The notes under the pieces: generated by a model
The model's input: the letters and a program-made list of their open reading frames with translations, nothing else
The model's database searches: none
Told to the model about the DNA's origin: nothing
Source: a virus
Taxonomy: Duplodnaviria; Caudoviricetes
DNA: 64,000 bases
Virus record (IMG/VR): IMGVR_UViG_3300043177_000122
Coordinates: 256,001 to 320,000 of that record
Direction: 5' to 3' (one strand)
Program-made: the position numbers and the translations under genes
Shown here: positions 28,615 through 52,019 of the stretch, one piece after another
How the letters are laid out: every line of letters starts with the position of its first letter
Numbering within the stretch: the stretch's first letter is position 1

Positions 28615-29046
28615 ATGTCTTTTGATCTGAAAATAGTGAATGGCGATTTGGTTATTAATCAGGGCGCCCTCCGGACTGTAGTGGATAGCGAAAAGCTTAT
28701 TCAAGACATTCTTAAGATTTGTTTGACTGATGTTGGAGCTAATCCATTACATCCATCCTATGGTTCATTTTTGTCCAGATCTGTTGTTGGAAATCCACTT
28801 CAGACAAATGTAGTAGTGCAAATTGCTAAATCACAATTAAATAATTGTCTTACAAATCTTCAACAATTACAACAACTACAAGTTAAATCGTTCCAAAAAG
28901 TAAGTGCGGATGAACAACTTGCAGCAATTACAGGTATATCTATAGTAAAGAGCGCTTTTGATCCTAGACTCTTTACTGTTAAGATAAGTTGTTTAACTAA
29001 GGGGTTTCAGCCAATTACCACCGCTTTTACTATCTCAACAATCTGA
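28615..29046 (+). CDS. Baseplate wedge / sheath initiator, gp25-like
   Basis: DLKIVNGDLVI...KLIQDILKICLTDVGANPLHPSYGS is the typical gp25/gpW motif. Confidence 0.8.
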   Translation: MSFDLKIVNGDLVINQGALRTVVDSEKLIQDILKICLTDVGANPLHPSYGSFLSRSVVGNPLQTNVVVQIAKSQLNNCLTNLQQLQQLQVKSFQKVSADEQLAAITGISIVKSAFDPRLFTVKISCLTKGFQPITTAFTISTI

Positions 29047-32000: not shown

Positions 32001-33150
32001 ATTGATTATTCCAAAATCTACAAATGCGGTTCCAGGAGATTTTGTCTACGTTATGTTCTTTAACTTTAGCAATTTACGTAAAGCTCCAACTCGCATTACT
32101 GGAAGCATTGTAGATCAAGTCGTTAATACTGGTGTAGTATCAGTTATTGGAACTACTATGGCTTTAGCTTCTGATGTAATTTTTACAGCAACTAGTACTG
32201 GGTTACGGCAAAACTTACAAGAAGCTTTACGTAAAGCTTTAAATCTCAGCTCAACTGCTAGTATACCAAGCACAATAAAGATAGCTAAGATAGTAAAAGC
32301 TGAAAAGGTAACTACCTTTTCAACAGGCAGCGATGTGGTAACCAATATACTTACTACTTATGATACTGTTGGTAGCACTATTGCAAACAACCTATTTTTT
32401 GCTGATACTATGAGGGCAAATCCACTGCTATCAGGTGTAGATTTTGTTTTACCAGCTACAACCAACAACACTTTAACTGGCTCTACAAATAACTTACCTA
32501 CTGTGGGAGATTTAATTAGGATTACTTTCTATTATACAAATGAAAATGATTCTGAAAATCTTGCATATACTAGAATTGGTTCGTTATATACAAATAAGAA
32601 GTTTGCTTTAATAAATCAGATTTATGTAAATAGTGGATTTCAATCCTCTCAGGCAACTAAATTTACAGCAACCTCTTTTACTAAACCTAGTGTGGGTGCT
32701 AGATATACGATTTTCTACAACTATCTAGCTCCAAAACAGAATGAAAGAATTCTGATACAGTATAATTACAATAAGCTAATATCAGATACTACTTTTGCTA
32801 TCGAAAACAGTCGTCCAATTAATGCAGACGTTTTAGTTAAATCTGCTAAGCTAATTTTGATTGATTTAACTATGAACGTAGTAATTAATCAAAACTTCCT
32901 AACTACATCCTCTACTGTTCTACAAAATCTACGTAACCAATTAGTAGCCGCTCTTACAAGCACTCAACTTGGACAAACAATAGATCAAATCACGTTAATT
33001 AACATAGCACAGGGCGTACAGGGTATAGATAGGGCTAGAATACTATTCTTCAATAAGTCTGGGTTACCAGGTCAAGTACTAAGTATTACCGCTGCTGAAG
33101 ATGAGTATTTCCAATCAAATACCATCAATATTAACACTGAAACCAGATGA
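29056..33150 (+). CDS. Baseplate J-like wedge protein with about 900-aa insertion
   Basis: N-terminal DTKPGTVARDLF...GTDLDNLG...GNIG...TNIASFAGGTDQETDAAFRNRIL...SVTGVQDAVV, with the J C-terminal domain at the end. Confidence 0.85.
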   Translation: MVTIRSVNEIIASLIDFFRLAQPDLDTKPGTVARDLFIEGPSSQLSLLYDQLQGVSNKQSLRLSIGTDLDNLGKNFGLIRKQSTPSTGVALLTFPSLNSVININKGAPIYTLGGLSFSVVNGTSLVPSNINFYRSVATKFAAQLAFVGITDQYAVQVTVTANSPGSSGNIGQYSLSKVAIPGISNVTNIASFAGGTDQETDAAFRNRILSTFSGSSVGTQLGYLNAALSVTGVQDAVVIEPGNPLMTRDGSVVETINGTLTIIQEGAGGKVDVVVLGTNDVANTDTFIYQDKSNNNDPTSSKNNFVLGQIDADANLSISQKRVKDIKNGQLPAQPVSTINQVTGSSSGSNFIPYTVDQFGRGSGNYLLVKDTGVYGGSCFGFDTFVWKSNQIEFQEDVIKGQSNGQDPTTFTEVQQISNTQQQLSVTNENSIVTSDRTIIQLLHYPATNVTRVFNTNTGERYLIVDQNVDDTSPNNTTGRIKISGNTLPAPSDILQVDYTWVVDYDRYSDFDGLQNTQNPRAVTDSVDWGYPSAIKNEVVEFVLSPGNNYYIGTTSHPVDTIISTNTFTQVDGYVQIIGSGVFVNRLSVALNNLETPSTSVDSIVWKNNGTELYKTDQLDGSFSNVATVVGINILYNTTVILPTDTPAQVGDRVSAILNATNIFQSNTLQGSSNGTQVTIPSSLVNSSADRINLLVNYIANVNDLFSSAIINLPTSRLGNGFSLSNNSGFNNFSIANISRRENRIVRLNLSNQFFVELNLPNTDYTLLTDNILSVVRLSDGKELWNPDNKGTVTVGVSGNYQLILTGFNTPLTADRVLVIYYATDIRRFQPFSFSNRIIKTRINSLGEDPITKNFTVPLVEFTAQSSGLKFDVVEQNSDTVLFSVTDGYLTPINSTQAFINSLSVNFSSLPDLTNKRIKITGAVAPNNDGYFDIVSYSIGTNNITITSMLNHITANNISIVRLLDGKELWNYSGTIDQANNRLIIPKSTNAVPGDFVYVMFFNFSNLRKAPTRITGSIVDQVVNTGVVSVIGTTMALASDVIFTATSTGLRQNLQEALRKALNLSSTASIPSTIKIAKIVKAEKVTTFSTGSDVVTNILTTYDTVGSTIANNLFFADTMRANPLLSGVDFVLPATTNNTLTGSTNNLPTVGDLIRITFYYTNENDSENLAYTRIGSLYTNKKFALINQIYVNSGFQSSQATKFTATSFTKPSVGARYTIFYNYLAPKQNERILIQYNYNKLISDTTFAIENSRPINADVLVKSAKLILIDLTMNVVINQNFLTTSSTVLQNLRNQLVAALTSTQLGQTIDQITLINIAQGVQGIDRARILFFNKSGLPGQVLSITAAEDEYFQSNTININTETR

Positions 33151-40306: not shown

Positions 40307-43300
40307 ATGACAAAGCGAGCCCCCGTATCTATACAAAGACCAATCTGGTATGATGCCCAGCAGGTAGATGAAACAGACCTATCTACTGAGCAAATGGCTA
40401 ATGATACCATTGATGCTGCCATCATTAATAACCACATTGGTGGCGGAGTTCTCCCAGAAAATTTAGTCGCTAAAGTTTTATTTGATTCTAGTAAGGCAAT
40501 CGGATTTCTAGATGGTCTTGCTATCGAAACTCAAGATCAGCCATCTGATAATAATTTAGGAAATCAGCTTTCTATTTCACTAACGGATTCGAAAGCTTCA
40601 GGGCATCGTCGTGTTAAAGTTGGTATTATTGGATTAGATTTCCAGTCCAATTTACAATTTGAGACATTTTACTTTAAGAATAACGAAACTCAGACAAGCA
40701 GAAAACACTTCACAAGAATTCTAGTTTTACTATTCAACGATTTTATTGGAGACCCAGAAATCTCTTTTAATCTAGGTGGAAAGATAGTTATCTCAGAAGC
40801 TCTACCAATGACAGTTTCTAGAGATGTTGTTATGATTGCCCAAGATCAGCAACCAAATTTATTTTTCAGAGATTTCTTTTTAGACTCTTCTGTTAACAAT
40901 CTCTCTATCGAAGCTATGTTGCAAAATGCTTTGCCACTTTACAACATTGATAGTTTGAATATTTTATCTGCTCCAGTAGATTTGCTACCAATTTTAAGTG
41001 GTGACGTTACTACGCAGATTGGTCAAAAGTTTCAGGCAACAACTAATAGCGTCCAAAAAATTTCTCTATTACTTGCAGTAAGAAACCAAGTTGCAGGACA
41101 ACAAGATAATTTAGTTTGGAACGGAGATATCGTTGTTAGTATCTATCCATTACAAACAAGTATTGATTGTCCAACCGACTTTTTACCAAATCTTCCGATA
41201 GATTTCTCTCCATCCAATATCCCAATTGCCCAGATTAGTTACAACTATAATAGTTTAAAAGATGCTGGAATACTTTTAGATTCTGTTCCACAACCGGTTG
41301 ACTTTGTGTTTAGTAATAGTCCAATTGCAGGTGGAAATGTTATGGTTCCAGGACAATATTATGCTTTAGCTATTAAACGTTCTGGTTCAGCTAATCAATG
41401 CGATATCTTAATTGCAACTGGTCAAAATCTAATTGACAATTCTAGAATTACTACTTTTACTGGAGCTTTATGGGTAGATATTCCAGACCAGGATTTATGG
41501 TTTGTGGTTTGGACAGACGCCGCCAAGATTTCTGACGGCCAAGCTTATGATCAGGGTCATGGTGTTACTATTCCAAAAACCACTACAGATCCAACTTCGC
41601 TGGCAACCATTGATAATTTATTCGGTGCTAAACAATTTGTAGGTAATGATGTTTTCCGTGCCGTACTTCAAGCAGTAACAGAAGTTTCTAGTCCAGTACC
41701 GGATCAAAGAACGGGTAATCCAGTAGACTCTCGTCAACAATATGTTCCTCAAGTTACATTGATGAATTCAATTGATATTGTTAATTTAGAGAAAACCTCT
41801 GAACCTCTCATTCTAGGGGCAATATCTGACAAAAATATCAAATTTTTTGATACCAGTCAGCAAAATATTAATTCCACATTGTACAGCGCTACAATGGTAA
41901 GAGATGAGCTTGTTATTAGAATTGTTGATGACCCAACAGATACTGTTAGATTTGATCTAGCAGTTAGTGGGTTAGCAACCAGTTTACTCAATGGTGATTT
42001 AGTCGGGGCAATAATTAGACCAGATGCCGCCGCTCCATTCACAGCATATCGTATTGCTGATGCAAGACTATGTTCTATGATTTTAGGAGATGTAGATGGT
42101 AATGGAATTATTGATGAGAATGATCTTTCACTTCTAAATAAATTTATTGGTTACAATATGAATGTTGGCTTGCCACTTCATACAAATATCGTAACAGACG
42201 GATATTCTACTGTTGTTCAAAATGGATATCAAACACTAACACAACCATTTGCTAATTTATTTGGTATTAGTTTCCAACTACTAAATCCTAATGATGGGTA
42301 TGTGGTAGCTTCAGCTTCCGATGGAGTTTTAGTTGCTAATCCAAATGATCCTTCTTTGGCTCAATTTACTAGTGCTACCATTCAATTCAACACAATCGTA
42401 GGTTTAAGCACTTACAAACTAGTTATCTTAGATAGCGGTTCAAATGAAGCAGATTGGGGATCTTGGAACATTGTCGCTCTAGATTCAGGTCTAGACGTTT
42501 TGACTATTCAAAAAATTTACTTGACTGGCGATGTATTTGCTCAAATGATGAGAGCAGATATTAATGGAGATTTTGCTATTACTACAGCAGATGGATACCT
42601 ATTAAATAGCTACATTGATAGATTGCCAACTACCGCAATACCTCATGCTACTTATCCTGCACCAAGCACTAATCCATATACTAAAATTGGTACTCGTTTC
42701 AATGTTATTAGATTAAGAGTTGAGGGCCTTGTAGATAGATCGGATGATTACACTGCGGATCCAGCTAACCGCGCTGATACAGTACATCCATTACAAGACA
42801 TATTCTTAGGAAATGGATATCTAACAAGTCATGATTTCTACAACTCTCCAATCCAATTATCATTTACTAAACAGTTAGTTTGGGATCCTTCTTTAGTTAT
42901 AACTACTGCACATCCAAAACTAGTTCCAAGCGTATTCACTTCTGAATCAGGAGTTGTACATAATATTTGTGAAATTGAAGGTATACAGTGTAATGTTTAT
43001 CCAGTACCGCAAACATTCGATCCTGGTAAGGTAGATTTCTTTGTTCCTAATAATCTTATCATTGGAGATGGTGAATTACAGAGACCTGATGGTTACTTCT
43101 ATAAAGTAGATTTTGAAGTTGGTACTGTCGTTCTAGAAATCCCAGATGGTTTATTTGGTTCTGAAAGAACTATTGATATTATGAACGATTTCATTGCAGA
43201 TTATACTGGTAACGGAGCTACTCGTCTTGGATTTCCATCCATGAGATTCGCTGACTGTTCATATGTTCAAAGGGACGCGCTTTCCAAAGATCAAATTAGA

Positions 43301-44332
43301 TTCTCGGTTTCTGTACAGTCTTTCTCTCCAAATACAAATGGCTTGAGTCCAGATGGATATACTGGGGCCATTGTAGATGGTAAGATGGGTGTAAGCGTAG
43401 ACTTTGAAACCGGTTTACTTACTTTGAACTTCACTAATTTGTACCAAGATGCTACATTGAGAACTTTGAGCACGAAGATTCAGGTTCACGTCTTTTTAAA
43501 GAAGGGTGGATTCAATAACGAGCCGCTCTTTGTTAATGCTACTAAGGTACAAAATATGCTGAGCTTAATTAGCGTATTTAGCGGCGCTAATGATGGCGGC
43601 CCATCAGCTTTAGTTGATCTGGGTAATGATGTTACTGGTATTCTACCAATTCTAAATGGTGGTACTGGACTAAATGATGTAGGATCATTTGGTACAGTTC
43701 TAACGAGTAATGGAAGCGGTTTAAGTTATCAATTTGTTAACACGCTACTTAATGTTATACCATTTTCTACTGGTATTCCAGACGCTGATAAAGTGCCCAA
43801 ACTAGATGGTTATGGATTCTTAGACCCAAGCTTTATGTACAAACAACCAATGTACATTCCAATTGTGTCTGGATCTTATTCAAATGATGGATATACTCCT
43901 GCTGCTATTGGTGCTTGCATCTTTAGATTTGATAGTTTCATTTTAGAAGGCCTTGACAGTATTAAATTAGAATGTATAGTAGAAAGCACAAATACAGCTA
44001 ACACCGCAGCTATTAGACTCTACAATGTAAATACTAATAGCTATGTACTACTGAACGGTATTAGCCCTGTATTGACGACTAATAATACTCAAGCTACTTA
44101 TCTAGTTTCTCAGGATCTAAAGTCGCTTCTATCAGCCGGAGCTACGAATTGGATTTATGAAGTTCATTTGAATTCTGATCCTGGTGGCAGCTTAGATACT
44201 TCTATTTGCAAAATGGCGAGATTGGTAATGACATACAATAACTTGACACTAAACGGTTCGGCCCAGATTGCTCCTCCATTAGCTCACAGTTATAACTTTG
44301 TACCATTCCTACCAAGCCCAACTCCAGTATAA
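40307..44332 (+). CDS. Virion protein with split dockerin-like EF-hand pair (1341 aa)
   Basis: N-terminal WYDAQQVDETDLSTEQ resembles fibre-attachment trimer motifs. GDVDGNGIIDENDLSLL and ADINGDFAITTADGYLL. Confidence 0.6.
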   Translation: MTKRAPVSIQRPIWYDAQQVDETDLSTEQMANDTIDAAIINNHIGGGVLPENLVAKVLFDSSKAIGFLDGLAIETQDQPSDNNLGNQLSISLTDSKASGHRRVKVGIIGLDFQSNLQFETFYFKNNETQTSRKHFTRILVLLFNDFIGDPEISFNLGGKIVISEALPMTVSRDVVMIAQDQQPNLFFRDFFLDSSVNNLSIEAMLQNALPLYNIDSLNILSAPVDLLPILSGDVTTQIGQKFQATTNSVQKISLLLAVRNQVAGQQDNLVWNGDIVVSIYPLQTSIDCPTDFLPNLPIDFSPSNIPIAQISYNYNSLKDAGILLDSVPQPVDFVFSNSPIAGGNVMVPGQYYALAIKRSGSANQCDILIATGQNLIDNSRITTFTGALWVDIPDQDLWFVVWTDAAKISDGQAYDQGHGVTIPKTTTDPTSLATIDNLFGAKQFVGNDVFRAVLQAVTEVSSPVPDQRTGNPVDSRQQYVPQVTLMNSIDIVNLEKTSEPLILGAISDKNIKFFDTSQQNINSTLYSATMVRDELVIRIVDDPTDTVRFDLAVSGLATSLLNGDLVGAIIRPDAAAPFTAYRIADARLCSMILGDVDGNGIIDENDLSLLNKFIGYNMNVGLPLHTNIVTDGYSTVVQNGYQTLTQPFANLFGISFQLLNPNDGYVVASASDGVLVANPNDPSLAQFTSATIQFNTIVGLSTYKLVILDSGSNEADWGSWNIVALDSGLDVLTIQKIYLTGDVFAQMMRADINGDFAITTADGYLLNSYIDRLPTTAIPHATYPAPSTNPYTKIGTRFNVIRLRVEGLVDRSDDYTADPANRADTVHPLQDIFLGNGYLTSHDFYNSPIQLSFTKQLVWDPSLVITTAHPKLVPSVFTSESGVVHNICEIEGIQCNVYPVPQTFDPGKVDFFVPNNLIIGDGELQRPDGYFYKVDFEVGTVVLEIPDGLFGSERTIDIMNDFIADYTGNGATRLGFPSMRFADCSYVQRDALSKDQIRFSVSVQSFSPNTNGLSPDGYTGAIVDGKMGVSVDFETGLLTLNFTNLYQDATLRTLSTKIQVHVFLKKGGFNNEPLFVNATKVQNMLSLISVFSGANDGGPSALVDLGNDVTGILPILNGGTGLNDVGSFGTVLTSNGSGLSYQFVNTLLNVIPFSTGIPDADKVPKLDGYGFLDPSFMYKQPMYIPIVSGSYSNDGYTPAAIGACIFRFDSFILEGLDSIKLECIVESTNTANTAAIRLYNVNTNSYVLLNGISPVLTTNNTQATYLVSQDLKSLLSAGATNWIYEVHLNSDPGGSLDTSICKMARLVMTYNNLTLNGSAQIAPPLAHSYNFVPFLPSPTPV

Positions 44333-44344
44333 TATTTGAAACCC

Positions 44345-44372
44345 TTGACATCCTAATTTTTCGAACTATGAT
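44345..44372 (+). promoter_or_regulatory. Sigma70-type promoter
   Basis: TTGACA (44345-44350), N16, TATGAT (44367-44372), at the boundary between structural and accessory modules. Confidence 0.65.
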
Positions 44373-44415: not shown

Positions 44416-45111
44416 ATGTTAAGAGAAAAATTATGGAAAATTTTCCAACTACCCTCCCCTAAGGAATTAGGCTGGTCTGATAGCAATGCTTTACCTGTAG
44501 CACTGTTTAAGCAGGCCAATAATGATACTCCCACTTGGGAAGATTGGGATAACAAGATGCGCAAGGAATATCCAATAAGATATTTCTTTGCCGAAACATT
44601 GCCCTTTTGGTTTAAAACTAAGATTCGTCGTCATGTGAAAGACATAATCTATTTTCTTAAGTGTCATCTGTTACCTAGTCATAGATATCATTTTTTGGAT
44701 TTGAGGCAGCCAAAAAAGAAGGGTAAGTATAGCTATCGTTGGGGATGGTTAGATTCTGATAGTAAGATGATTTATGCTCTGTTCAATATTTTGAATACAT
44801 TTGTTGAAGAAGAGTTACCAAACATGTATTGTCCCTCTGAAGAGGATGTTAATGCAAATCCGTACATGGCCTCACAGCGCAATCATTATCTAGAAATAAA
44901 AGCAATTCATTATTGGTGGAATATTGAAAGAGAACGTCATGTTCAATTACACGATGATTTACTAAATAGATGGTTAACAGCCAAACAGACACACGATCCC
45001 GCCGAGCATCAACTCTTGGATGAGCTTCAGAAAATGGAAGCGGCAGCAGAAATTAAAGAAGATGAAATGATTAGCAGGCTTATCAAGATCCGCCGTTCAC
45101 TCTGGACCTGA
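44416..45111 (+). CDS. Hypothetical phage protein (W/Y-rich)
   Basis: 231-aa ORF downstream of the sigma70-like promoter. No function recognised. Confidence 0.6.
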   Translation: MLREKLWKIFQLPSPKELGWSDSNALPVALFKQANNDTPTWEDWDNKMRKEYPIRYFFAETLPFWFKTKIRRHVKDIIYFLKCHLLPSHRYHFLDLRQPKKKGKYSYRWGWLDSDSKMIYALFNILNTFVEEELPNMYCPSEEDVNANPYMASQRNHYLEIKAIHYWWNIERERHVQLHDDLLNRWLTAKQTHDPAEHQLLDELQKMEAAAEIKEDEMISRLIKIRRSLWT

Positions 45112-45124
45112 TATAGATGGGTTC

Positions 45125-46270
45125 ATGAAAGTTTGTTGGTTTGGATTCCTCGCTAAAAATCACAGTTGGTCAATCGTTGCTCAAAATCTATCTAGAGAAT
45201 TCATTAAATTGGGACACCAGGTAGATTTATTTTCTACTAATGGTACACAGCATTTTCCAGAAGACCTTAAACCTAATTTGAAAGGTTTTGTTACTGAGGA
45301 AGAAGGGGTGACACCAGATCAGTATGTTGAGAAGATTGCCTCTAAACTAGATGCTAATTATGATATGCAAATGTCGTACACAGCACTCCGTAATTTCTGT
45401 AATTATTTTGTAAGGGGGAACAAGAATAGATTTGGTATTTGGAATTATGAAACCACTAAATTACCAACAGCATTTTCTAAACATGCCAAATGTGTTGACT
45501 TAGTTTTGCCATCTTCTCAATTTTCTAGAAAAGTATTTACTGATAATGGTATGTCACCTGAAGTACAAGTTGTTGTACCTCATGGCATTCACTTAGAGAG
45601 ATTTGCTAATTTAGGTAAGTATCCATTAAAGACTAATAAGAAATATAAGATATTGGTCAATATAGCGCAGCCTCATTTGCGCAAGAATATACCTGGCCTA
45701 CTTAAAGCTTTTGGTAAAGCTTTTACTAAAGCAGATGATGTGTGTTTAGTATTAAAGGTATCTCGTAAGAGTGCCAACAATAATCTAATGGCATTTGACG
45801 TGTCTTTTAATGATATTTATTCTCGTTGGCAAAAAGAATATCCACAACATGCCGAAGTAGAAATCATTGATAAGTTTATCGTTGATATTGAGACTTTATA
45901 CAATGCATGTGATATTGTATTCACAATGACACATGCGGAGTGTTTTTGGATGCCTGGGCTAGAAGGGTTTGCTGCGAATAAAATTGTGGTAGCACCAAGA
46001 TATGGTGGACAATTAGATTATATGAATGATGATAATTCTATTCTAATAGATGGTAAAATTATTAGAGCAGATATGAGAATGCAGTATTGGGAGCCCTCTC
46101 CATATGCAGAGGTATTTGATCCCGATCAGGAGCAAGCTGCGGCTAAGTTAAAAGATTTAGTTGCTAACTATGATGATTATTTAAAGAAATTTTCTCCAGG
46201 CATGCAAGAAATGGCCCATAAGTTTACTTGGGAAAATGCAGCTAAACAGATTATAGGACTATGTAAATGA
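45125..46270 (+). CDS. GT-B glycosyltransferase, GT4 family
   Basis: VLPSSQFSR...VVVPHGI...RKNIPGLLKAF...LYNACDIV...ECFWMPGLE (E-x7-E)...YGGQLDY. Confidence 0.9.
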   Translation: MKVCWFGFLAKNHSWSIVAQNLSREFIKLGHQVDLFSTNGTQHFPEDLKPNLKGFVTEEEGVTPDQYVEKIASKLDANYDMQMSYTALRNFCNYFVRGNKNRFGIWNYETTKLPTAFSKHAKCVDLVLPSSQFSRKVFTDNGMSPEVQVVVPHGIHLERFANLGKYPLKTNKKYKILVNIAQPHLRKNIPGLLKAFGKAFTKADDVCLVLKVSRKSANNNLMAFDVSFNDIYSRWQKEYPQHAEVEIIDKFIVDIETLYNACDIVFTMTHAECFWMPGLEGFAANKIVVAPRYGGQLDYMNDDNSILIDGKIIRADMRMQYWEPSPYAEVFDPDQEQAAAKLKDLVANYDDYLKKFSPGMQEMAHKFTWENAAKQIIGLCK

Positions 46271-46980
46271 CAACTGACCCAAACTATAAGGCACTAAGCA
46301 TTGTTATTCCAGTCTTCAATAAATGGAATTTTACCAAGTCTTGTTTAAAGGATTTAGTACAATTGCCAAGCGATCATGAAATCATCATTATTGATAATGC
46401 CAGTACTGATGAGACTAATGTTGAAATCAACAAGTTCTGTGATGAATTATTCAAAACTAATCCTACTGGATGTGGCGTTGCATATATTCAGAATAAAGAA
46501 AATACTTTTCACTCAAAAGCTTGTAATCAGGGTGCCCGAATTGCGATGGGTGAACGCATCTTATTTCTGAACAATGACATAAGGGTTCGTGCCAACCATT
46601 CTACATGGACTAAGCAAATCATTGAAACTTGTGATGCTACTCAAGGACTAGTTGGACCAACCATGGGGCTTCTGGATAAGAACCTTAATTTCGTTAAAGA
46701 GGCCAACGAACAATTAGATGGTAATAGTTATCTTGGTGGTTGGTGTATTGCTGCACGCAAAGAAGTTTGGGAAAAGGTTGGATATTGGAATGAAGAATTT
46801 CCTTTCTATTTCAATGATACTGATCTAAGTTTTCGTGCTCGTCAAAAACAGATTCCTATTACTGTTGTGAAGCTGTTAGATGTTACCCATTTTGGTAAAG
46901 TCTCAGCGCAACAAATTAATATTCCGAAATTGTATCAAGAAGGAAGGAAAGTCTTCCTTAAACATTGGTCTAAAAAGTGA
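46267..46980 (+). CDS. GT-A glycosyltransferase, GT2 family
   Basis: LSIVIPVFN...EIIIIDNASTD...ACNQGA...ILFLNND...FYFNDTDLSFR. Confidence 0.9.
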   Translation: MTTDPNYKALSIVIPVFNKWNFTKSCLKDLVQLPSDHEIIIIDNASTDETNVEINKFCDELFKTNPTGCGVAYIQNKENTFHSKACNQGARIAMGERILFLNNDIRVRANHSTWTKQIIETCDATQGLVGPTMGLLDKNLNFVKEANEQLDGNSYLGGWCIAARKEVWEKVGYWNEEFPFYFNDTDLSFRARQKQIPITVVKLLDVTHFGKVSAQQINIPKLYQEGRKVFLKHWSKK

Positions 46981-47375
46981 ATGATTACATTATTGATGCT
47001 GCAATCTTGTACCGAGATGCTCTAAAGGAGAATCAAGTGGAATTATTAGTTCCATTAAATGATTTGAGAATTGTTTATGTGCCCAATATGCCACATTCTC
47101 ATAGAACTATATAGATTCGGATGGACCTTATTCTATTTTACAAAACAGAAAATTCTGATGATTGGGCTGATTTTCTTAGAGTTAGCAATTCTCCTATTGG
47201 AACTCAACGAGGCGTTTATTTTATCGGGATAAAAGATGATGATATCGATTATTATGTGACTAAAATGGCGTGCGATAATATGCAGCAAACTTATTCTCGC
47301 TCTCTACGCCCAACTTATTTTGAAATAAATCCCGATTATTTATTAAAGATACCGAAACTATTAGCATTTGCCTAA
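46977..47375 (+). pseudogene. Single reading frame split by in-frame TAG at 47112-47114 (or two small genes)
   Basis: GTG 46977 overlaps the GT2 stop. After 45 codons comes TAG, then ATT CGG ATG in the same frame as the 84-aa ORF at 47121. Confidence 0.35.
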
Positions 47376-48034
47376 TCATCAAACCTAAATTGATGTGTTT
47401 CACAATATGATTTGAATAATTCATATTTCCTACTCAAATAGATAGTGGCATCTTGATAAATCCAATCAAGAATTTTTTTGACCTGACGACTGCCGCCACT
47501 ATCTAGCCTATACGTATTGTTTGCGTATCTCTTTGGGCGGCTAACATAAGAATTTATTCCTAACTCCGATTTAAGTACATTTTGAATAGTTTCAATCATC
47601 TCTTTAGTTGATACCATCTGAACATTCATTTGATCATCTGATTTATTAATATGCAAACAGCCATCTCCATCAAAATATCCTCTAATAAAATGTCGTATCA
47701 GTTTTTTATCTAACCAATTAGGAAAAATTGTATTAAAACTTTTTGTCTGATGGCATCCTAGTGAGGCTAATGTTTTTGTAAGATGTTTACTATTCAATTC
47801 CAATCTATACGCAATGTATTTTCCTCCATTTTTGTTTTGTACGAAAGGCTCACGTGGTTGGCCAAAGAAACGCGCACATTTATATAAATGTTCTTTGTCT
47901 CGTTCTTGTAACTCAACAACTAATCTTCCAAGTTTTTCGTTATTATATGCGTTGGCATAAAAGAAACCAAGCCAATATGCTTTTTCTTCAGTGTCGATGT
48001 TATCCATTAAATTTTTATTTATCGAGTACTTCAT
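47372..48034 (-). mobile_element. Free-standing LAGLIDADG homing endonuclease gene
   Basis: DTEEKAYWLGFFYANAY and HFIRGYFDGDG motifs. The only substantial minus-strand gene. Start moved to ATG 48034. Confidence 0.8.
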
Positions 48035-48052
48035 CTTGATATATAATATATC
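48035..48052. promoter_or_regulatory. CTTGATATATAAT motif, copy 3, within palindrome TGATATATAATATATCA (possibly bidirectional)
   Basis: Lies between the divergent LAGLIDADG and Nei genes. 8-bp arms around a central A. Confidence 0.55.
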
Positions 48053-48104
48053 ATGAAATGCCCGAATTGACAGAAGTAGCATTCAGAAAGTGTTTAGGTG
48101 TAAA

Positions 48105-48941
48105 ATTCCGGAAGGTCCTGAAGTAAAATTAAGCGCCGATTTAATTAGACCATTAGTTATAGGTAAGAGGGTAATTAATGCATTTCCAGGTAAGAAAAGT
48201 AGATACGCAACTAGTCCCCCAGATGGGTTTTCTAGTTTTTTGGATACAATCACCAAAGAAGAAGTAAGAGTTATTGAAGTAGATGTCAAAGGTAAATTTA
48301 TGTACTGGAAGTTTAGTAACGGATGGTACATGATGAATTCTTTTGGTATGAGTGGTCAATGGTCTCCTAAAGAAGGTAAACACCCTTGTTTTGTTTTTTA
48401 TTTTAGTGAGAATTGGCCCGTCGTGGAAGAGACTATGTACTTCAATGACCCGCGGCACTTTGGAACCATAAAGTTCACAAATTCTGAAAAAGAGTTTAAC
48501 AAAAAACTTGATGAATTAGGATGGGATCCCTTATCGATGCCGCTTGACAAAAGCGTACGATGGATTACATTTCAACTCTCTAAATCTAAGAAACCTATTG
48601 CTGAAGTTTTGATGGATCAGGGACTTTTTTCTGGGGTCGGAAACTATATTAGGGCTGAAGCGTTATATGCATGTAAGCTTTCACCATGGCGGGCTTCTAA
48701 TACGCTTTCCAAGGATGAAATTCAATTGTTATGTCAGGCCATTGTTGATGTTATGCAAGAATCATACCAGCACCAAGGCGCTACTATTCATACCTACAAA
48801 ACCGCTTATGGTGATGAAGGTCATTACTCAACTAAGTTCAAGGTATATGGTCAGAAGCAAGACCCACTTGGTCATAAAATTGTGAAGCAGCAGACAGCAG
48901 ATAAAAGAACTATTTACTGGTGTCCTGACGTTCAAGTATAA
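48105..48941 (+). CDS. nei: Fpg/Nei-family DNA glycosylase/AP lyase, zincless-finger type; probable ATT start
   Basis: PEGPEV catalytic N-terminus, VDVKGKFMY, FGMSG, H2TH region LMDQGLFSGVGNYIRAEALY and RTIYWCP end. Confidence 0.85.
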   Translation: MPEGPEVKLSADLIRPLVIGKRVINAFPGKKSRYATSPPDGFSSFLDTITKEEVRVIEVDVKGKFMYWKFSNGWYMMNSFGMSGQWSPKEGKHPCFVFYFSENWPVVEETMYFNDPRHFGTIKFTNSEKEFNKKLDELGWDPLSMPLDKSVRWITFQLSKSKKPIAEVLMDQGLFSGVGNYIRAEALYACKLSPWRASNTLSKDEIQLLCQAIVDVMQESYQHQGATIHTYKTAYGDEGHYSTKFKVYGQKQDPLGHKIVKQQTADKRTIYWCPDVQV

Positions 48942-48950
48942 GGTATTATT

Positions 48951-49943
48951 ATGTCTCCTACATTAGTAAAAATTTTAGTTGCTATTGGTGCCGTCCTCAC
49001 GATTGGCGTTTTGATTTTTATCATCTACATGCAGTTACAAATTAAGGCCCAGCAAACTGCTATTCAAACTCAGCTCGTTGAGCAAAAACAATTAGTAGAT
49101 GGAATCATGCGTAGTCAGAGCCAATATGCGACTAAACAAGATATTGATAAGTTTGCTAAAGATAACAATGTCAATCTAAAAGCAATTCAAGATGATTTAG
49201 ATAAGTTGAATGCTCAAGTTACTTCTATTAATGTAGTCATTGCTGCTAGCCGAGGGCAACATGGAACTAACATCCCGAGCACTCCGCCTGGTCCTAATAA
49301 TCCAACTAATCCAAATCCGGTAGATCCTAGCAATCCCGATCCATTTGGATATATGAAGACACAGCAAAATCTTGCTCTAAATGAAGATTTTGGTACTGTC
49401 AAAGTTCCATTTGGTCAAGTTGGATTTTCTGCCTGGAAGGATAAGCCTTGGTCAGTTGATATCTCTCAAAGAGATTATAATCTGGTTACAGTTGTTGGAA
49501 CTGATGAGAATCAAAGGCAGTATTTTTACAACAAGTTTAGTATAACGACTGGCGGCAAGACATACGATGTTCCAATCAAGATAGCTTCTACTAAACAAGA
49601 ATATCCAAGTCCAAAGTTTAGTTGGTGGAACCCAAGGCTATTGATGGGGCTGGATGGTGGGGTCAATATTACACACGGAAAAGGCGAGTTTACCCCAAGT
49701 GTTAATGTAGGAATTATGTCTTATGGGCAATATAAAACTACACCAGACCTATCGATTCTAGAAGTTGGTGTAGGTTATGGAACTATTAACAAGACTCCTC
49801 AAGTATTAATCACGCCAGTAGCTTATAATATTGGCAAGAATCTCTTTTCACCATTAATGAATAACACATATATAGGCCCAAGTTTTCAAGTTAGTACAGA
49901 TGGTTCTCTTGGGGCGGGTGCGGGCCTAAGGGTAGGTTTTTGA
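48951..49943 (+). CDS. N-terminally membrane-anchored protein with coiled coil and C-terminal beta-strand domain ending in Phe
   Basis: TM segment ILVAIGAVLTIGVLIFIIY, Q-rich coil, and C-terminus ...YIGPSFQVSTDGSLGAGAGLRVGF. Confidence 0.65.
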   Translation: MSPTLVKILVAIGAVLTIGVLIFIIYMQLQIKAQQTAIQTQLVEQKQLVDGIMRSQSQYATKQDIDKFAKDNNVNLKAIQDDLDKLNAQVTSINVVIAASRGQHGTNIPSTPPGPNNPTNPNPVDPSNPDPFGYMKTQQNLALNEDFGTVKVPFGQVGFSAWKDKPWSVDISQRDYNLVTVVGTDENQRQYFYNKFSITTGGKTYDVPIKIASTKQEYPSPKFSWWNPRLLMGLDGGVNITHGKGEFTPSVNVGIMSYGQYKTTPDLSILEVGVGYGTINKTPQVLITPVAYNIGKNLFSPLMNNTYIGPSFQVSTDGSLGAGAGLRVGF

Positions 49944-50782
49944 TGCTACATATTCTCACTTTGACATGGAACGCTGCTGATAAGATTACCAAGTTGTATG
50001 AATCACTCATGCCAGCTTTGGAAGGAATTGATTACCACTGGTGGATTAAGGACAACGCCTCTAAAGATGATACTGTTGCCCGAGCCAATACCTGGGGTGA
50101 TAAAGTTCATTGTATTGCATATAAGGATAATCGTCAGAACTTTTCAGAAGGCTGCAATTTTCTTTTCAATGAAGCAAAACCAAATGATAGTGACTATGTA
50201 ATGTTACTTAACAACGATATTATCTTTAAAGATAAAGAGTCTATCAAAAAGATGATCTCTATTATCGAGAAAGATGATTCGGTAGGTATGGTTGGTGCCA
50301 GGTTACTTTATACTGATACCGATCAGTTGCAGCACGCTGGTGTTGTTTTTAATCCTACTTATAAAACCCCTATGCACTTCCGTGCTGGTCAGCAAACAGA
50401 TGCTGATGCTGAACGCGATCGTGAATTCCAGGTAGTTACTGGTGCTGTTTGTATCACCAAGGGAGAATATTTCCGTAACGCAAACCCACAGACTAAATCT
50501 GGTATTGCTGGAATGGACGAAAGCTATCATTGGGCATTTGATGATGTAGATTTATGTCTTTCTATTAAGTACAATCTAGGTAAGAAGATTGTTTATTGTG
50601 GTGGAACCAATATCTTCCATGAGGAAAGCGCCTCTCTCAAAAAGAATCAGGTTAATAAACTCTTCTTACCACACAACTTGCAATATCTTTTCAAGAAGTG
50701 GCAAGGCCGTTATGCCATTGATCAAGAAGCTTATACAAAAGATTCCAGACTTAATTTATATCGAGGGACAAATGTCGGTTGA
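49943..50782 (+). CDS. GT-A glycosyltransferase, GT2 family
   Basis: ILTLTWN...IKDNASKD...YVMLLNND...VGARLLY...LQHAG...VVTGAV...MDESY...FDDVDLCL. Confidence 0.9.
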   Translation: MLHILTLTWNAADKITKLYESLMPALEGIDYHWWIKDNASKDDTVARANTWGDKVHCIAYKDNRQNFSEGCNFLFNEAKPNDSDYVMLLNNDIIFKDKESIKKMISIIEKDDSVGMVGARLLYTDTDQLQHAGVVFNPTYKTPMHFRAGQQTDADAERDREFQVVTGAVCITKGEYFRNANPQTKSGIAGMDESYHWAFDDVDLCLSIKYNLGKKIVYCGGTNIFHEESASLKKNQVNKLFLPHNLQYLFKKWQGRYAIDQEAYTKDSRLNLYRGTNVG

Positions 50783-51047
50783 AGTAGGGTATTATAAACA
50801 CTTCAAAGGTAATATTTACCAAGTTCTTGGAGTTGGTAAACACTCTGAAACTGGTGAAGAGCTAGTTGTATATTTAGGGTTATATGATGTCCCTCATGTT
50901 TTTGGTGCTATGTGGATTAGACCCGTTTCAATGTTTCTAGAAACCATTGAGAGAGATGGAAAGGTAATGCGACGTTTTGCACCAATCTCTTACAGAGAAG
51001 CAATGAGGGAGTTGTATCCTTCGCCACTTAATGCTGATAAGGTATAA
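50772..51047 (+). CDS. DUF1653-like small protein
   Basis: YYKHFKGNIYQVLGVGKHSETGEELVVY...MWIRPVSMF...RRF. Start moved to ATG 50772. Confidence 0.8.
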   Translation: MSVEVGYYKHFKGNIYQVLGVGKHSETGEELVVYLGLYDVPHVFGAMWIRPVSMFLETIERDGKVMRRFAPISYREAMRELYPSPLNADKV

Positions 51048-52019
51048 ATGAAAAAAGTTCTTGTTACAGGTACATGTGGTTTTATCTTTGGAAACTTTAT
51101 TCGCAAAGCCATCTATGATCAAAATCAAAAAAGGTCCCAGGATAAAGGGTACGTGTTTTCTAGTGTGGATCGTGTTACCTATGAAGGTAACTCCATGTAC
51201 TGGAACAAAAACCATACTTTCTACCCGGCTGATATCCGCGATCAACACATTATGGATGCCATTTTCAAATTTGAAAAACCAGATATCGTAATTCATGGGG
51301 CGGCCGAAACCTTCGTAGATACGTCATTGAAAGATCCGAACTCTTTCGTCACATCCAATGTGTTGGGAACTCAAGTTATCATTAACAATTGTCTAAAGCA
51401 CAAGGTAGAGAGGTTGATTTATATTTCCACAGATGAGGTGTATGGCCATCTTACCAGCGAGTCTGACCCGCCCTGGAAAGAGGATGCTCCACTTAATCCT
51501 AGAAATCCCTATTCAGCTTCTAAGGCTGCCGGAGAACTAATGGTTAAAGCTGCCCACCAGACTCATGGGTTAATTTATAACATTACCAGAAGTTCTAACT
51601 GCTATGGACCTCGCCAGTATGCTGAAAAGCTAGTCCCAAAGGCTATTAAGTGTATTATGGAGGGTCAGAAAATTCCTATCTATGGCCAAGGTTTACAGAT
51701 TAGGGATTGGACCTATGTGGCAGATAATTGTACAGCCATTATGGCTATCCTTGATCGAGGCGCCCCAAATGAGATATACAATATTTCAGCCAATCAAGAA
51801 TTCACTAACATTGAAACTATTAATTTGGTTTGCAATGCAATGGGTAAAGGGCATGATTTAATTTCTTTTATTCCAGATCCAAGGACCGGGCATGATTTTA
51901 GGTATGCGATTGATACCGCCAAGGTTCGTGAATTGGGCTGGAAGCCAACTTATAAATTCAAGGATGGCATCAGAGATACAGTACAATGGTATCTAGATAA
52001 TCCATGGTTTTTGAAGTGA
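51048..52019 (+). CDS. rmlB: dTDP-glucose 4,6-dehydratase-like NAD-dependent epimerase/dehydratase
   Basis: VLVTGTCGFIFGNF, YISTDEVYG, NPYSASK, NCYGPRQYAEKLVP, IYGQGLQIRDW, DPRTGHDFRYAID. Confidence 0.85.
   Translation: MKKVLVTGTCGFIFGNFIRKAIYDQNQKRSQDKGYVFSSVDRVTYEGNSMYWNKNHTFYPADIRDQHIMDAIFKFEKPDIVIHGAAETFVDTSLKDPNSFVTSNVLGTQVIINNCLKHKVERLIYISTDEVYGHLTSESDPPWKEDAPLNPRNPYSASKAAGELMVKAAHQTHGLIYNITRSSNCYGPRQYAEKLVPKAIKCIMEGQKIPIYGQGLQIRDWTYVADNCTAIMAILDRGAPNEIYNISANQEFTNIETINLVCNAMGKGHDLISFIPDPRTGHDFRYAIDTAKVRELGWKPTYKFKDGIRDTVQWYLDNPWFLK

Follow-up and report, generated by a model that had tools for sequence, protein, structure and literature searches.

A conserved sugar locus tied to the tail module of a huge freshwater myovirus, with virion proteins as candidate acceptors

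Known viral glycosylation systems and the present locus

In chloroviruses, cytoplasmic glycosyltransferases (GTs) encoded by the virus build rhamnose-containing glycans on its own structural protein (PBCV-1 A064R). In mimivirus, the dehydratase R141 lies inside a GT cluster and L780 elsewhere in the genome, and R141 supplies the rhamnose as well as the viosamine branch of fibril-glycan synthesis (PMC9614988). Mycobacteriophages that encode a methyltransferase and tandem GTs add glycans to their capsid and tail-tube proteins (Freeman 2023, as cited in PMC11600133 and PMC12619734).

The locus described here belongs to a 359-kb freshwater myovirus, an uncultured huge phage whose genome is 83% complete. 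Like mimivirus (R141, GTs L137-L142, L780, L136; PMC9614988), it carries its own nucleotide-sugar pathways and several GTs, with a 4,6-dehydratase within the GT cluster and a bifunctional 3,5-epimerase/4-reductase elsewhere; in both, the dehydratase product can lead to rhamnose as well as to a 4-amino-6-deoxy sugar (here with DegT and other genes at 125-137 kb). However, mimivirus is a eukaryotic giant virus, whereas this is a tailed bacterial phage with a predicted glycan. The first step here is a bacterial RmlA-type thymidylyltransferase and therefore dTDP-sugars are likely, rather than UDP-sugars. With mycobacteriophages of the Che8/Corndog/Myrna type, the locus shares tandem soluble GTs, the lack of lipid-carrier genes and a GT number that differs between phages, and its GTs would likewise work in the cytoplasm on structural proteins. 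In contrast, those phages have Actinobacteria hosts, siphovirus virions and capsid and tail-tube C-termini as targets, and are not known to carry rhamnose-type nucleotide-sugar synthesis genes; in the present phage, GT4 is fixed at the end of the baseplate/tail-fibre block. The likeness to chloroviruses is that the NY-2A GT4 (3oy2) is the top-ranked PDB fold match of our GT4 (E 1e-13, TM 0.71, 16% identity), although bacterial GT4 enzymes match at least as well, and A064R, a multi-domain GT-A/novel-GT/methyltransferase protein, has no counterpart here.

Gene content and conservation

The features are listed in Table 1. Pfam, PHROG and NCBIfam searches located within 45125-52019 the GT4, the two GT2s and the RmlB-like enzyme named in the earlier note, and the interleaved Nei-like gene and membrane-anchored protein are also present; a LAGLIDADG endonuclease, an 84-aa ORF and a DUF1653 gene had been overlooked in that inventory. 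By position, the tail genes do lie immediately upstream: the block runs from the gp25-like gene through Baseplate_J to two giant proteins, which have sub-threshold domain matches only, and ends at 44332.

Table 1. Features of the locus and of the distant sugar genes. Positions refer to the window, i.e. the whole stretch of DNA analysed (64,000 nucleotides), unless marked contig.
Feature	Position	Strand	Evidence or remark
gp25-like gene	28615-29046		start of baseplate/tail block
Baseplate_J gene	29056-33150		baseplate/tail block, after gp25-like gene
Last giant baseplate/tail gene	40307..44332	+	1341 aa; DGY-rich; anchor of conserved linkage
231-aa protein, accessory gene between tail gene and GT4	44416..45111	+	12/64 relatives
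GATATAG box, promoter-like element	45110..45116	+	8 nt ahead of GT4 ATG; overlaps TGA stop of upstream gene
GT4 (GT-B, retaining type)	45125..46270	+	Pfam and PHROG match; invariant core of module
GT2a, a GT2 (GT-A)	46267..46980	+	PF00535, 69 bits
84-aa ORF	47121..47375	+	tail-to-tail with endonuclease; only in window
Free-standing LAGLIDADG homing endonuclease	47372..48082	-	PF14528, 49.8 bits; phrog_4645, 2e-49
Second box, GATATAT-N8-ATG	48038..48055	+	opens 5-codon ORF only; ~50 nt ahead of fpg
Fpg/Nei-family DNA glycosylase	48090/48105-48941	+	H2TH, N-terminal and C-terminal Pfam domains above cut-off
330-aa envelope protein	48951..49943	+	N-terminal TM helix, helical stalk, Pro/Asn linker, beta-rich C-terminal domain
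GT2b, a GT2 (GT-A)	49940/49943-50782	+	PF00535, 41 bits
DUF1653 small protein, 91 aa, accessory	50772..51047	+	PF07866, 85.3 bits; 7/64 relatives
RmlB-type NDP-glucose 4,6-dehydratase, 4-keto-6-deoxyhexose supply	51048..52019	+	TIGR01181 and PDB matches
RmlA-type nucleotidyltransferase	contig 147334-148071		PDB 3hl3 at 2e-53
Plant/mimivirus-type 3,5-epimerase/4-reductase (NRS/ER), bifunctional	contig 148112-148969		PDB matches

GT4 scored 31.5 bits against Pfam Glycos_transf_1 (cut-off 26.4), and its AF2 model (pLDDT 83) has the GT-B fold, the best PDB matches all being GT4 enzymes. These matches score alike (E 1e-13 to 1e-10), and the acceptor is not readable from the modelled fold. At least 95% of 66 homologues keep residue E272, and the 13 closest all share the motif E272-x7-E280. 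GT4 and GT2a have 4 nt in common, and the ATG of GT2b overlaps the stop of the preceding gene, which encodes the 330-aa protein. D48, N102-N103-D104 and D184 of GT2a and D43, N91-N92-D93 and D202 of GT2b are each retained by 95% or more of 51 homologues.

Relatives were found via the tail protein alone and not via the GTs. This yielded 80 viral contigs, and the 64 with at least 7 kb downstream were counted. Tail-protein identity among the relatives is 35-93%. GT4 follows the tail gene in every one of the 64, often after a gap of 13-100 nt, and the locus contains GT2a in 54, GT2b in 53 and RmlB in 48. The clustering of sugar genes, for which the earlier note had called on synteny across relatives, is far beyond chance and recurs in 64/64. 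The comparison supports a glycosylation locus that is conserved together with the tail module. Relatives differ in GT number (from 1 to ~6), and the suggestion that several GTs make an oligosaccharide is likewise supported.

The transcript from the GATATAG box before GT4 would be near-leaderless. Genome-wide, 22 sites have GATATA[AGT] 7-9 nt ahead of an ATG that starts a frame of 40 codons or more, against a background of ~1 per spacing. The box before GT4 is conserved in 26 of the 64 distinct relatives, and GATATA-N8-ATG, as found at GT4, also heads RmlA and, in the other glycan island, the first GT. The second box of the locus may act as an internal promoter behind the inserted endonuclease.

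The Fpg/Nei, endonuclease, DUF1653, 231-aa, 84-aa and 330-aa genes are unrelated passengers in an insertion-tolerant operon. The endonuclease is inserted between GT2a and fpg, which lie ~3 nt apart in close relatives without it; five of the 80 relatives carry a homologue at this site, each time beside fpg (6 loci including the window). The Fpg/Nei sequence lacks the zinc-finger CxxC pair, and its gene starts with ATT-CCG after an AGGTG box in the window versus ATG-CCN-GAA (MPEG...) in relatives. Given its presence in only 21/64 relatives, the endonuclease shadowing it in 6 loci and the ATT start, a role for the Nei-like enzyme in the system, as had been proposed, is not borne out. The membrane-anchored protein also loses its place as a module component. 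It lies inside the module in 48/64 relatives, but among five distant homologues none has GT neighbours and three are near lysozyme or SLT genes. Its C-terminus, GLRVGF, resembles an outer-membrane beta-signal (model pLDDT 67), and a protein named 'OMP beta-barrel domain' matched it in AFDB (E 4e-11). The family of the 330-aa protein has 493 representatives. It is an independent envelope or lysis-type gene and no glycan enzyme. The DUF1653 gene is concealed within a longer TTG-started frame. No family match was obtained for the 84-aa ORF (Pfam, PHROG), which has no homologue in the relatives' loci, or for the 231-aa protein (Pfam, PHROG, NCBIfam).

Sugar supply

The RmlB-like protein scored 345.6 bits against TIGR01181, slightly below the cut-off of 365.1, and both T128-D129-E130 and Y155-xxx-K159 are present. 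In PDB, dTDP-glucose 4,6-dehydratases match its sequence best (E 7e-71), with mimivirus R141 (6vlo) at 2e-46. The RmlA and NRS/ER genes sit 107-109 kb ahead of the window start. Only Arabidopsis NRS/ER (4qqr, 1e-41) and mimivirus L780 (7jid, 2e-24) were found as PDB matches of the latter, 'RmlD-like' gene, and RmlC is missing because this gene encodes a bifunctional NRS/ER-type enzyme. Judged by these matches, RmlB takes the middle position in an L-rhamnose pathway that the phage encodes and that RmlA and NRS/ER complete. Its product can also enter the branch to 4-amino-6-deoxy sugars in the second glycan island (125-137 kb), which has DegT, acyltransferase and methyltransferase genes. The whole genome holds at least six GT-type genes and three nucleotide-sugar routes.

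In whole-genome profiles, RmlA and/or NRS/ER were confined to genomes with the GT2 pair (7/7). Four genomes, three of them complete and one 81% complete, have no GT2a/GT2b anywhere, no RmlA and no NRS/ER; these four all retain GT4 and RmlB. The association of the GT2 pair with NRS/ER is marginal (one-sided Fisher p = 0.05, shared ancestry ignored).

Candidate acceptors

Our tentative preference is to view the island as a cytoplasmic module that glycosylates virion proteins with a rhamnose-type glycan, a reading with somewhat under an even chance of being right. GT4 would attach the first sugar straight to an acceptor encoded by the phage, most likely the exposed, DGY-rich baseplate and tail-fibre proteins, and the GT2 pair would then lengthen the chain with rhamnose-type residues. 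The outcome would be a glycan-coated virion, comparable to mimivirus fibrils and to mycobacteriophage capsids and tails. GT4 is conserved across the clade (40-95% identity) while receptor-binding proteins diverge widely, and a clade-constant acceptor therefore seems to be needed; a phage protein would fit this conservation better than strain-specific host glycans.

Remodelling of the host envelope is an unlikely alternative. The soluble GTs would then work on the cytoplasmic side of the membrane and modify host O-antigen, capsule or S-layer glycan intermediates carried on undecaprenyl phosphate, with dTDP-sugars made by the phage and with the initiating transferase, flippase and ligase borrowed from the host. 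The altered surface of the infected cell would block superinfection, or keep progeny from sticking to debris. GT4/GT2 enzymes of such size (240-380 aa) are the usual ones where O-antigen and capsule are built on lipid carriers; some homologues carry the JGI name 'O-antigen biosynthesis mannosyltransferase', the N-terminal part of GT2a weakly matches GtrB-like and EPS transferases, and an envelope-spanning protein lies within the module in most relatives. As in Gtr serotype conversion and O-antigen clusters, phage-borne GT2-family genes border the tail module. Module ends also harbour accessory genes, for instance P22 gtr, and a position behind the tail gene is not diagnostic of the target, a counterpoint to the virion reading. 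However, no initiating phosphoglycosyl transferase (PF02397, PF00953) was found in the genome or in two 100%-complete relatives, nor a Wzx flippase or Wzy/ligase in this genome at 83% completeness. GT4, GT2a and GT2b have no membrane segments, and there is therefore no Gtr-type system; the GtrA flippase and membrane-embedded GtrB/GtrC of such clusters have no equivalent here. The 330-aa protein is unlinked to GTs outside the subclade, a clade-wide GT4 would require the same host acceptor across many hosts, and so large a set of GTs and sugar routes is hard to justify for the doomed cell of a presumably lytic virus.

Some other cytoplasmic acceptor is less probable still: a host protein (translation factor or defence protein), a small molecule, or a free oligosaccharide or glycolipid that would serve takeover or protection of the infected cell. 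EarP rhamnosylates EF-P, a translation factor. Soluble enzymes with no carrier-lipid machinery would suit such an acceptor, and BshA, MshA and GlgM, GT4s with small-molecule acceptors, are among the best fold matches of GT4. Yet the universal linkage to the tail block and the promoter-like box common to three sugar loci would be left without explanation, and three to six GTs exceed the need of a single regulatory modification.

Phage DNA, another target raised in the earlier note, is very improbable. The GTs would glycosylate modified phage bases against restriction, with Fpg/Nei processing or tolerating such bases, and a glycosylase gene does lie within the island in this window. Phage GTs can build mono- to oligosaccharides on 5-hydroxymethylpyrimidines (Pyle 2024, as cited in PMC12619734). 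The phage-encoded GTs of T4-type systems can likewise act sequentially. However, dTDP-6-deoxyhexoses are not known as donors for DNA glycosylation, no thymidylate-synthase-family hydroxymethylase was found in the genome or in five relatives (two complete), a Tet_JBP profile search for a TET/JBP gene gave no match while its control was also silent, and no T4-type DNA alpha-/beta-glucosyltransferase is among the top 50 fold matches of GT4, nor is there a sequence link to DNA GTs. Fpg is confined to a minority of relatives and travels with the homing endonuclease, and the module lies among structural genes, not the nucleotide-metabolism genes of T4-type systems.

Virion proteins, which the earlier note had proposed via the DGY motif, are the most plausible target. 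None of the 64 relatives lacks GT4, so the DGY-GT4 link has no contrast group, and two relatives (L065, L079) have a tail homologue without DGY yet keep all three GTs. The neighbouring 1341-aa tail protein contains seven DGY (~0.2 expected), and the median density in its homologues is 3.75 per 1000 aa.

Gene order and genome setting

The contig carrying the window is single and viral, with a length of 358,993 bp, 38% G+C, 57 tRNA genes and a completeness estimate of 83%. Two tRNAs with a CTA anticodon (called 'Pyl' by ARAGORN; 144353-144426 of this genome, and the next tRNA) lie among the 57 and may be amber suppressors. The island is preceded by a contractile-tail/baseplate block and followed by genes for a TubZ/PhuZ-like tubulin, an endolysin and replication helicases. 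All the genes that the earlier note had named in the island were recovered by profile and family matches. Its gene list was three short: the LAGLIDADG homing endonuclease, the 84-aa ORF and the DUF1653 gene had been overlooked.

Features of the tail block, the island and the sugar loci. Positions are those of the window unless marked genome; loci are those with the gene among 64 loci having at least 7 kb 3′ of the tail gene.
Feature	Position	Strand	Loci	Remarks
Sheath gene	9294-12119			contractile-tail/baseplate block 5′ of the island
gp25-like gene	28615-29046			tail/baseplate block
Baseplate_J gene	29056-33150			tail/baseplate block
Two giant proteins, 2383 aa and 1341 aa	end at 44332			close the tail/baseplate block
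231-aa ORF			12	
GT4	45125-46270		64	PF00534, 31.5 bits (cut-off 26.4)
GT2a	46267-46980		54	PF00535, 69.1 bits (cut-off 23.3); short GT-A enzyme
LAGLIDADG homing endonuclease	47372-48082	minus	5	
84-aa ORF				
Fpg			21	
330-aa protein	48951-49943		48	
GT2b	49943-50782		53	PF00535, 41.2 bits (cut-off 23.3); short GT-A enzyme
DUF1653 gene	50772-51047		7	inside a longer TTG frame
RmlB-type 4,6-dehydratase	51048-52019		48	TIGR01181, 345.6 bits (equivalog cut-off 365.1, not reached)
Additional GT4-like gene	63645-64934 (genome)			
Second glycan island	125-137 kb (genome)	minus		Gmd, Fcl-like enzyme, O-methyltransferase, DegT aminotransferase, FabG-like reductase, AMP-ligase, hexapeptide acyltransferase, methyltransferase-containing 596-aa protein, two more GTs
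RmlA-type thymidylyltransferase	147334-148071 (genome)			3hl3 2e-53; GalU-type enzymes ~1e-14
NRS/ER-type bifunctional enzyme	148112-148969 (genome)			adjoins RmlA; 4qqr 1e-41, 7jid 2e-24

In a first survey, 15 viral contigs found through GT4 all had one gene order: tail gene, (231-aa ORF), GT4, GT2a, (Fpg), 330-aa protein, GT2b, (DUF1653), RmlB and tubulin, brackets denoting variable presence. To avoid the circularity of a GT4-based survey, the search was repeated from the tail protein (1341 aa, encoded at the end of the tail block), with its N-terminal 615 residues as query, and gave 80 loci at 35-93% identity; presence was counted in the 64 with sufficient downstream sequence. Conserved clustering, the absence of which the earlier note had named as grounds for rejection, was seen, with GT4 lying 3′ of the tail gene at every one of these loci. 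A distant subgroup (L020:13048-19228, also L021; tail protein ~40% identical) carries an expanded run 3′ of the tail gene, consisting of GT4, GT2a, GT2b, a 303-aa unknown protein, GT2, a 700-aa unknown protein, GT2 and GT11 (fucosyltransferase-family). Here the two added GT2 genes and the GT11-like gene replace RmlB and the 330-aa protein. Thus, what stays constant is GT4 at the 3′ edge of the tail block, and the set of glycosyltransferases that come after it varies. Some relatives encode a 726-aa protein between the tail gene and GT4 (L012:7768-9948). Its GDSL/SGNH-hydrolase match stays below threshold (28.3 vs 32.9 bits); it may be a tail protein that deacetylates glycans.

The phage is uncultured. 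Its island occurred only in freshwater DNA metagenomes (three runs, two of them possibly its source), and no RNA datasets containing it were listed. Against 50,697 phage records, megablast with the island returned only a 44-nt chance-like match, and the one phage that tblastn matched to GT4 was Microcystis phage Mel-JY01 (23% identity); these comparisons showed no cultured relative among the phage records. Metagenomes yielded 964 homologues of GT4, the longest contig reaching 490 kb.

Glycosyltransferases, sugar supply and promoter-like elements

The AF2 model of GT4 (pLDDT 83, pTM 0.84) has the two Rossmann domains of a GT-B fold. The E272-x7-E280 motif of its C-terminal domain does not vary among 13 close homologues, and E272 is kept in at least 95% of 66 homologues. 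Among the top 50 Foldseek matches in the PDB all were GT-B sugar-nucleotide transferases, the best being GT4 enzymes at TM 0.6-0.75. The modelled fold, the motif and the HMM score place the protein in the CAZy GT4/Glycos_transf_1 family. The first-ranked fold match was the chlorovirus NY-2A glycosyltransferase (3oy2), with no real margin over GlgM, HepE, BshA, MshA and PglA. The type of acceptor could not be read from fold or profile, as the matches span lipid, protein-glycan, small-molecule and polysaccharide acceptors.

Of the 51 homologues of either GT2 protein, at least 95% retain the nucleotide-binding Asp (D48 in GT2a, D43 in GT2b). At the place where DxD is expected, both predicted enzymes have a conserved N-N-D (residues 102-104 and 91-93), in which the last Asp alone is retained. 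Sequence comparison with the PDB gave generic GT2 enzymes for GT2a, including S. parasanguinis GalT1, and zero matches for GT2b. The GT2b homologue of the complete 428-kb genome G016 (C1:126668-127477) has a single in-frame TGA; the gene may be a pseudogene or recoded, or the sequence may contain an error.

For the RmlB-type protein, TIGR01181 was by far the best-scoring model and its cut-off was narrowly missed. The catalytic motifs T128-D129-E130 and Y155-S-A-S-K159 are intact, and the N-terminal NAD-binding Gly motif (G8-T-C-G11-F-I-F-G15) is a one-residue variant of GxxGxxG. The best PDB matches were all dTDP-glucose 4,6-dehydratases, and mimivirus R141 matched at 2e-46. Elsewhere in the genome, an RmlA-type gene adjoins one for a plant/mimivirus-type bifunctional 3,5-epimerase/4-reductase (NRS/ER). 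The only solved relatives of the latter are Arabidopsis NRS/ER (4qqr) and mimivirus L780 (7jid); no bacterial RmlD was matched among PDB sequences, and RmlC is absent from the genome. Together with the RmlB of the window, these two genes make up a complete predicted NDP-L-rhamnose route of mixed bacterial/giant-virus type. In mimivirus, the dehydratase R141 lies in a glycosyltransferase cluster, feeding rhamnose and viosamine, and L780 is encoded elsewhere (PMC9614988). The layout in the phage is alike, with the dehydratase inside the cluster and the epimerase/reductase elsewhere.

The modularity of the system was profiled over 15 clade genomes. RmlA and NRS/ER occur together in six (G000, which contains the window, G001, G006, G007, G009 and G016) and NRS/ER alone in G013; all seven carry both GT2a and GT2b. 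The complete genomes G002, G012 and G014 and the 81%-complete G008 are without GT2a and GT2b anywhere and also without RmlA and NRS/ER, while GT4 and RmlB are retained. The association of the GT2 pair with RmlA/NRS-ER is suggestive only (one-sided Fisher p = 0.05, phylogeny ignored). The distribution fits a base unit of GT4 and RmlB to which the GT2 pair adds a rhamnose-dependent extension. As testable assignments from the comparative data, GT4 would be the initiating enzyme, the GT2 pair would carry out the extension and RmlB would be the branch-point supplier.

A promoter-like GATATAG box (45110-45116) lies 8 nt 5′ of the GT4 ATG, overlapping the stop codon of the preceding gene, and is conserved in 26 of 64 distinct relatives. 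GATATA[AGT] occurs at 22 sites genome-wide at a distance of 7-9 nt (mostly 8) from a downstream ATG that opens a frame of 40 or more codons, vs ~1 per spacing elsewhere; these include genome positions 136665(-), 146853, 147334, 280555 and 316089. Such boxes precede GT4, RmlA and the ORF before it, the first glycosyltransferase of the minus-strand island and several ORFs after tRNA genes. The element is therefore common to all three sugar loci. The spacing suggests near-leaderless mRNAs. A second copy (48038-48055), just 3′ of the endonuclease insertion, may re-start transcription toward fpg, GT2b and RmlB. In a promoter/terminator scan, site counts were not above shuffled expectation. A single near-consensus sigma-70-type site (TTGACA-16-TATGAT, 11/12; 44345-44372), to which no weight is given, falls within the 84 nt that separate the last tail gene from the 231-aa ORF.

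Target of glycosylation

Virion proteins are the favoured target of the island, at slightly less than an even chance. None of GT4, GT2a and GT2b has a hydrophobic (membrane) segment, and soluble glycosyltransferases with sugar-nucleotide enzymes and without lipid-carrier genes are, as predicted here, the gene content expected of virus-encoded virion glycosylation of the mimivirus, chlorovirus or mycobacteriophage kind. Gtr-type serotype conversion, in contrast, employs the membrane-embedded GtrA, GtrB and GtrC; the sole link to it was GT2a, whose N-terminus weakly matches phrog_841 (3e-6). Modification of host lipid-linked glycans is unlikely: initiating phosphoglycosyl transferases (PF02397, PF00953) are absent from the genome and from two complete relatives, and Wzx and Wzy/ligase are absent from the genome, so that assembly on a lipid carrier would rest entirely on the host. 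Less likely still is another cytoplasmic acceptor, and part of the probability is given to none of the targets considered. Phage DNA, which the earlier note had offered as a target, is very improbable. The dCMP/dUMP hydroxymethylase (PF00303) that would supply a hydroxylated base is absent from the genome and five relatives, TET/JBP (PF12851) gave no matches in five genomes, a weak negative as control genomes were silent too, and no DNA-glycosyltransferase-like fold was among the top 50 matches of GT4.

Within the reading of virion proteins as target, a sequon can be proposed. The motif Asp-Gly-Tyr (DGY) occurs 7 times in the tail protein vs ~0.2 expected, and 71 times vs 15 expected in the genome. 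Its median in homologues of the tail protein is 3.75 per 1000 aa, with zero in two relatives; none of the 64 relatives is without GT4, hence there is no negative set for comparing DGY with glycosyltransferase presence. Exposed DGY turns, which the clade's baseplate and tail-fibre proteins contain ~25-35x more often than expected, would be the acceptors, and GT4 would act as a cytoplasmic sequon-directed protein glycosyltransferase adding the first sugar to the Tyr or a neighbour. Exchangeable add-on modules would go on to vary the glycan, here through the GT2 pair together with RmlA and the mimivirus-type rhamnose synthase, in other lineages through further GT2 and GT11 enzymes. This DGY mechanism is quite unlikely as a whole. 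If true, phages would have their own equivalent of the fibril glycosylation of giant viruses, and for phages of diderm bacteria it would be the first case of virion glycosylation based on a sequon.

Virus-encoded glycosylation is known in chloroviruses and mycobacteriophages. It is also described in mimiviruses (PMC9614988, PMC4691112), and glycosyltransferases are core genes of other large aquatic phages, where no role was assigned to them (PMC12619734). New here are the universal linkage of GT4 to the tail gene, the suggested modular pairing of the GT2 genes with a giant-virus-type rhamnose synthase and the promoter-like box of the sugar loci. If the virion is the target, a very abundant freshwater huge-phage clade would cover its tail apparatus in a glycan that it makes itself and that varies between lineages. 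A coat of this kind would matter for host recognition, for resistance to proteases and grazing and for evasion of host receptors or decoys. The 'autonomous viral glycosylation' of giant eukaryotic viruses and mycobacteriophages would then extend to tailed phages of probably Gram-negative hosts.

Predicted envelope protein, Fpg/Nei gene and mobile endonucleases

The comparative data also newly clear two genes, those of the membrane-anchored protein and the Nei-like enzyme, of a part in the pathway. In the 330-aa protein, an N-terminal membrane helix is followed by a helical stalk, a Pro/Asn linker and a C-terminal domain rich in beta structure. This domain ends in G-L-R-V-G-F, resembling an outer-membrane beta-signal, and 14 relatives have F, L or M as the last residue. 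In structure, the protein is best matched by predicted proteins of an AFDB 'OMP beta-barrel domain' cluster (E 4e-11; model of modest confidence, pLDDT 67), and the fold had no significant match in the PDB. Many beta-barrel proteins occur in huge phages according to a recent preprint (10.64898/2026.10.24.761521). The family has 493 representatives at 50% clustering. No glycosyltransferase genes were found near five distant members, and lysozyme or lytic-transglycosylase genes lie next to or near three of these; the protein is therefore treated as an independent envelope/lysis-type gene. As a candidate it could span the envelope and serve in lysis or exclusion, with no link to the glycosyltransferases; its gene is lodged in the operon in one subclade.

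The Fpg/Nei gene, present at about a third of the loci, showed no tie to the sugar enzymes. The N-terminal, H2TH and C-terminal-finger Pfam domains of its product all score above cut-off; the equivalog score does not reach its cut-off (152.9 vs 212), and the CxxC pair is absent, leaving a finger without zinc-binding cysteines. Relatives free of the endonuclease begin fpg with ATG-Pro-Glu-Gly in 17 of 18 cases, a start that exposes the catalytic N-terminal proline. In the window ATT, not ATG, precedes the Pro codon, with an AGGTG box 5′ of it. All six endonuclease-bearing loci have a non-ATG start (GTG in four, TTG in one, ATT in the window; Fisher p = 5e-5 for association with the endonuclease). 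Because of the AGGTG box and the non-ATG starts of all endonuclease-bearing relatives, ATT is a plausible weak start of fpg rather than a lesion. The LAGLIDADG endonuclease lies directly 5′ of fpg wherever present (window 47372-48108; L036, L037, L043, L046, L090). The fpg start codon probably lies within the homing site, and the non-ATG starts fit immunity changes in invaded genomes. A GIY-YIG/NUMOD3 homing endonuclease was observed between RmlB and tubulin at two other loci (L012:16410-17132, L014:15240-15962). For mobile endonucleases of more than one family, the island is a hotspot.
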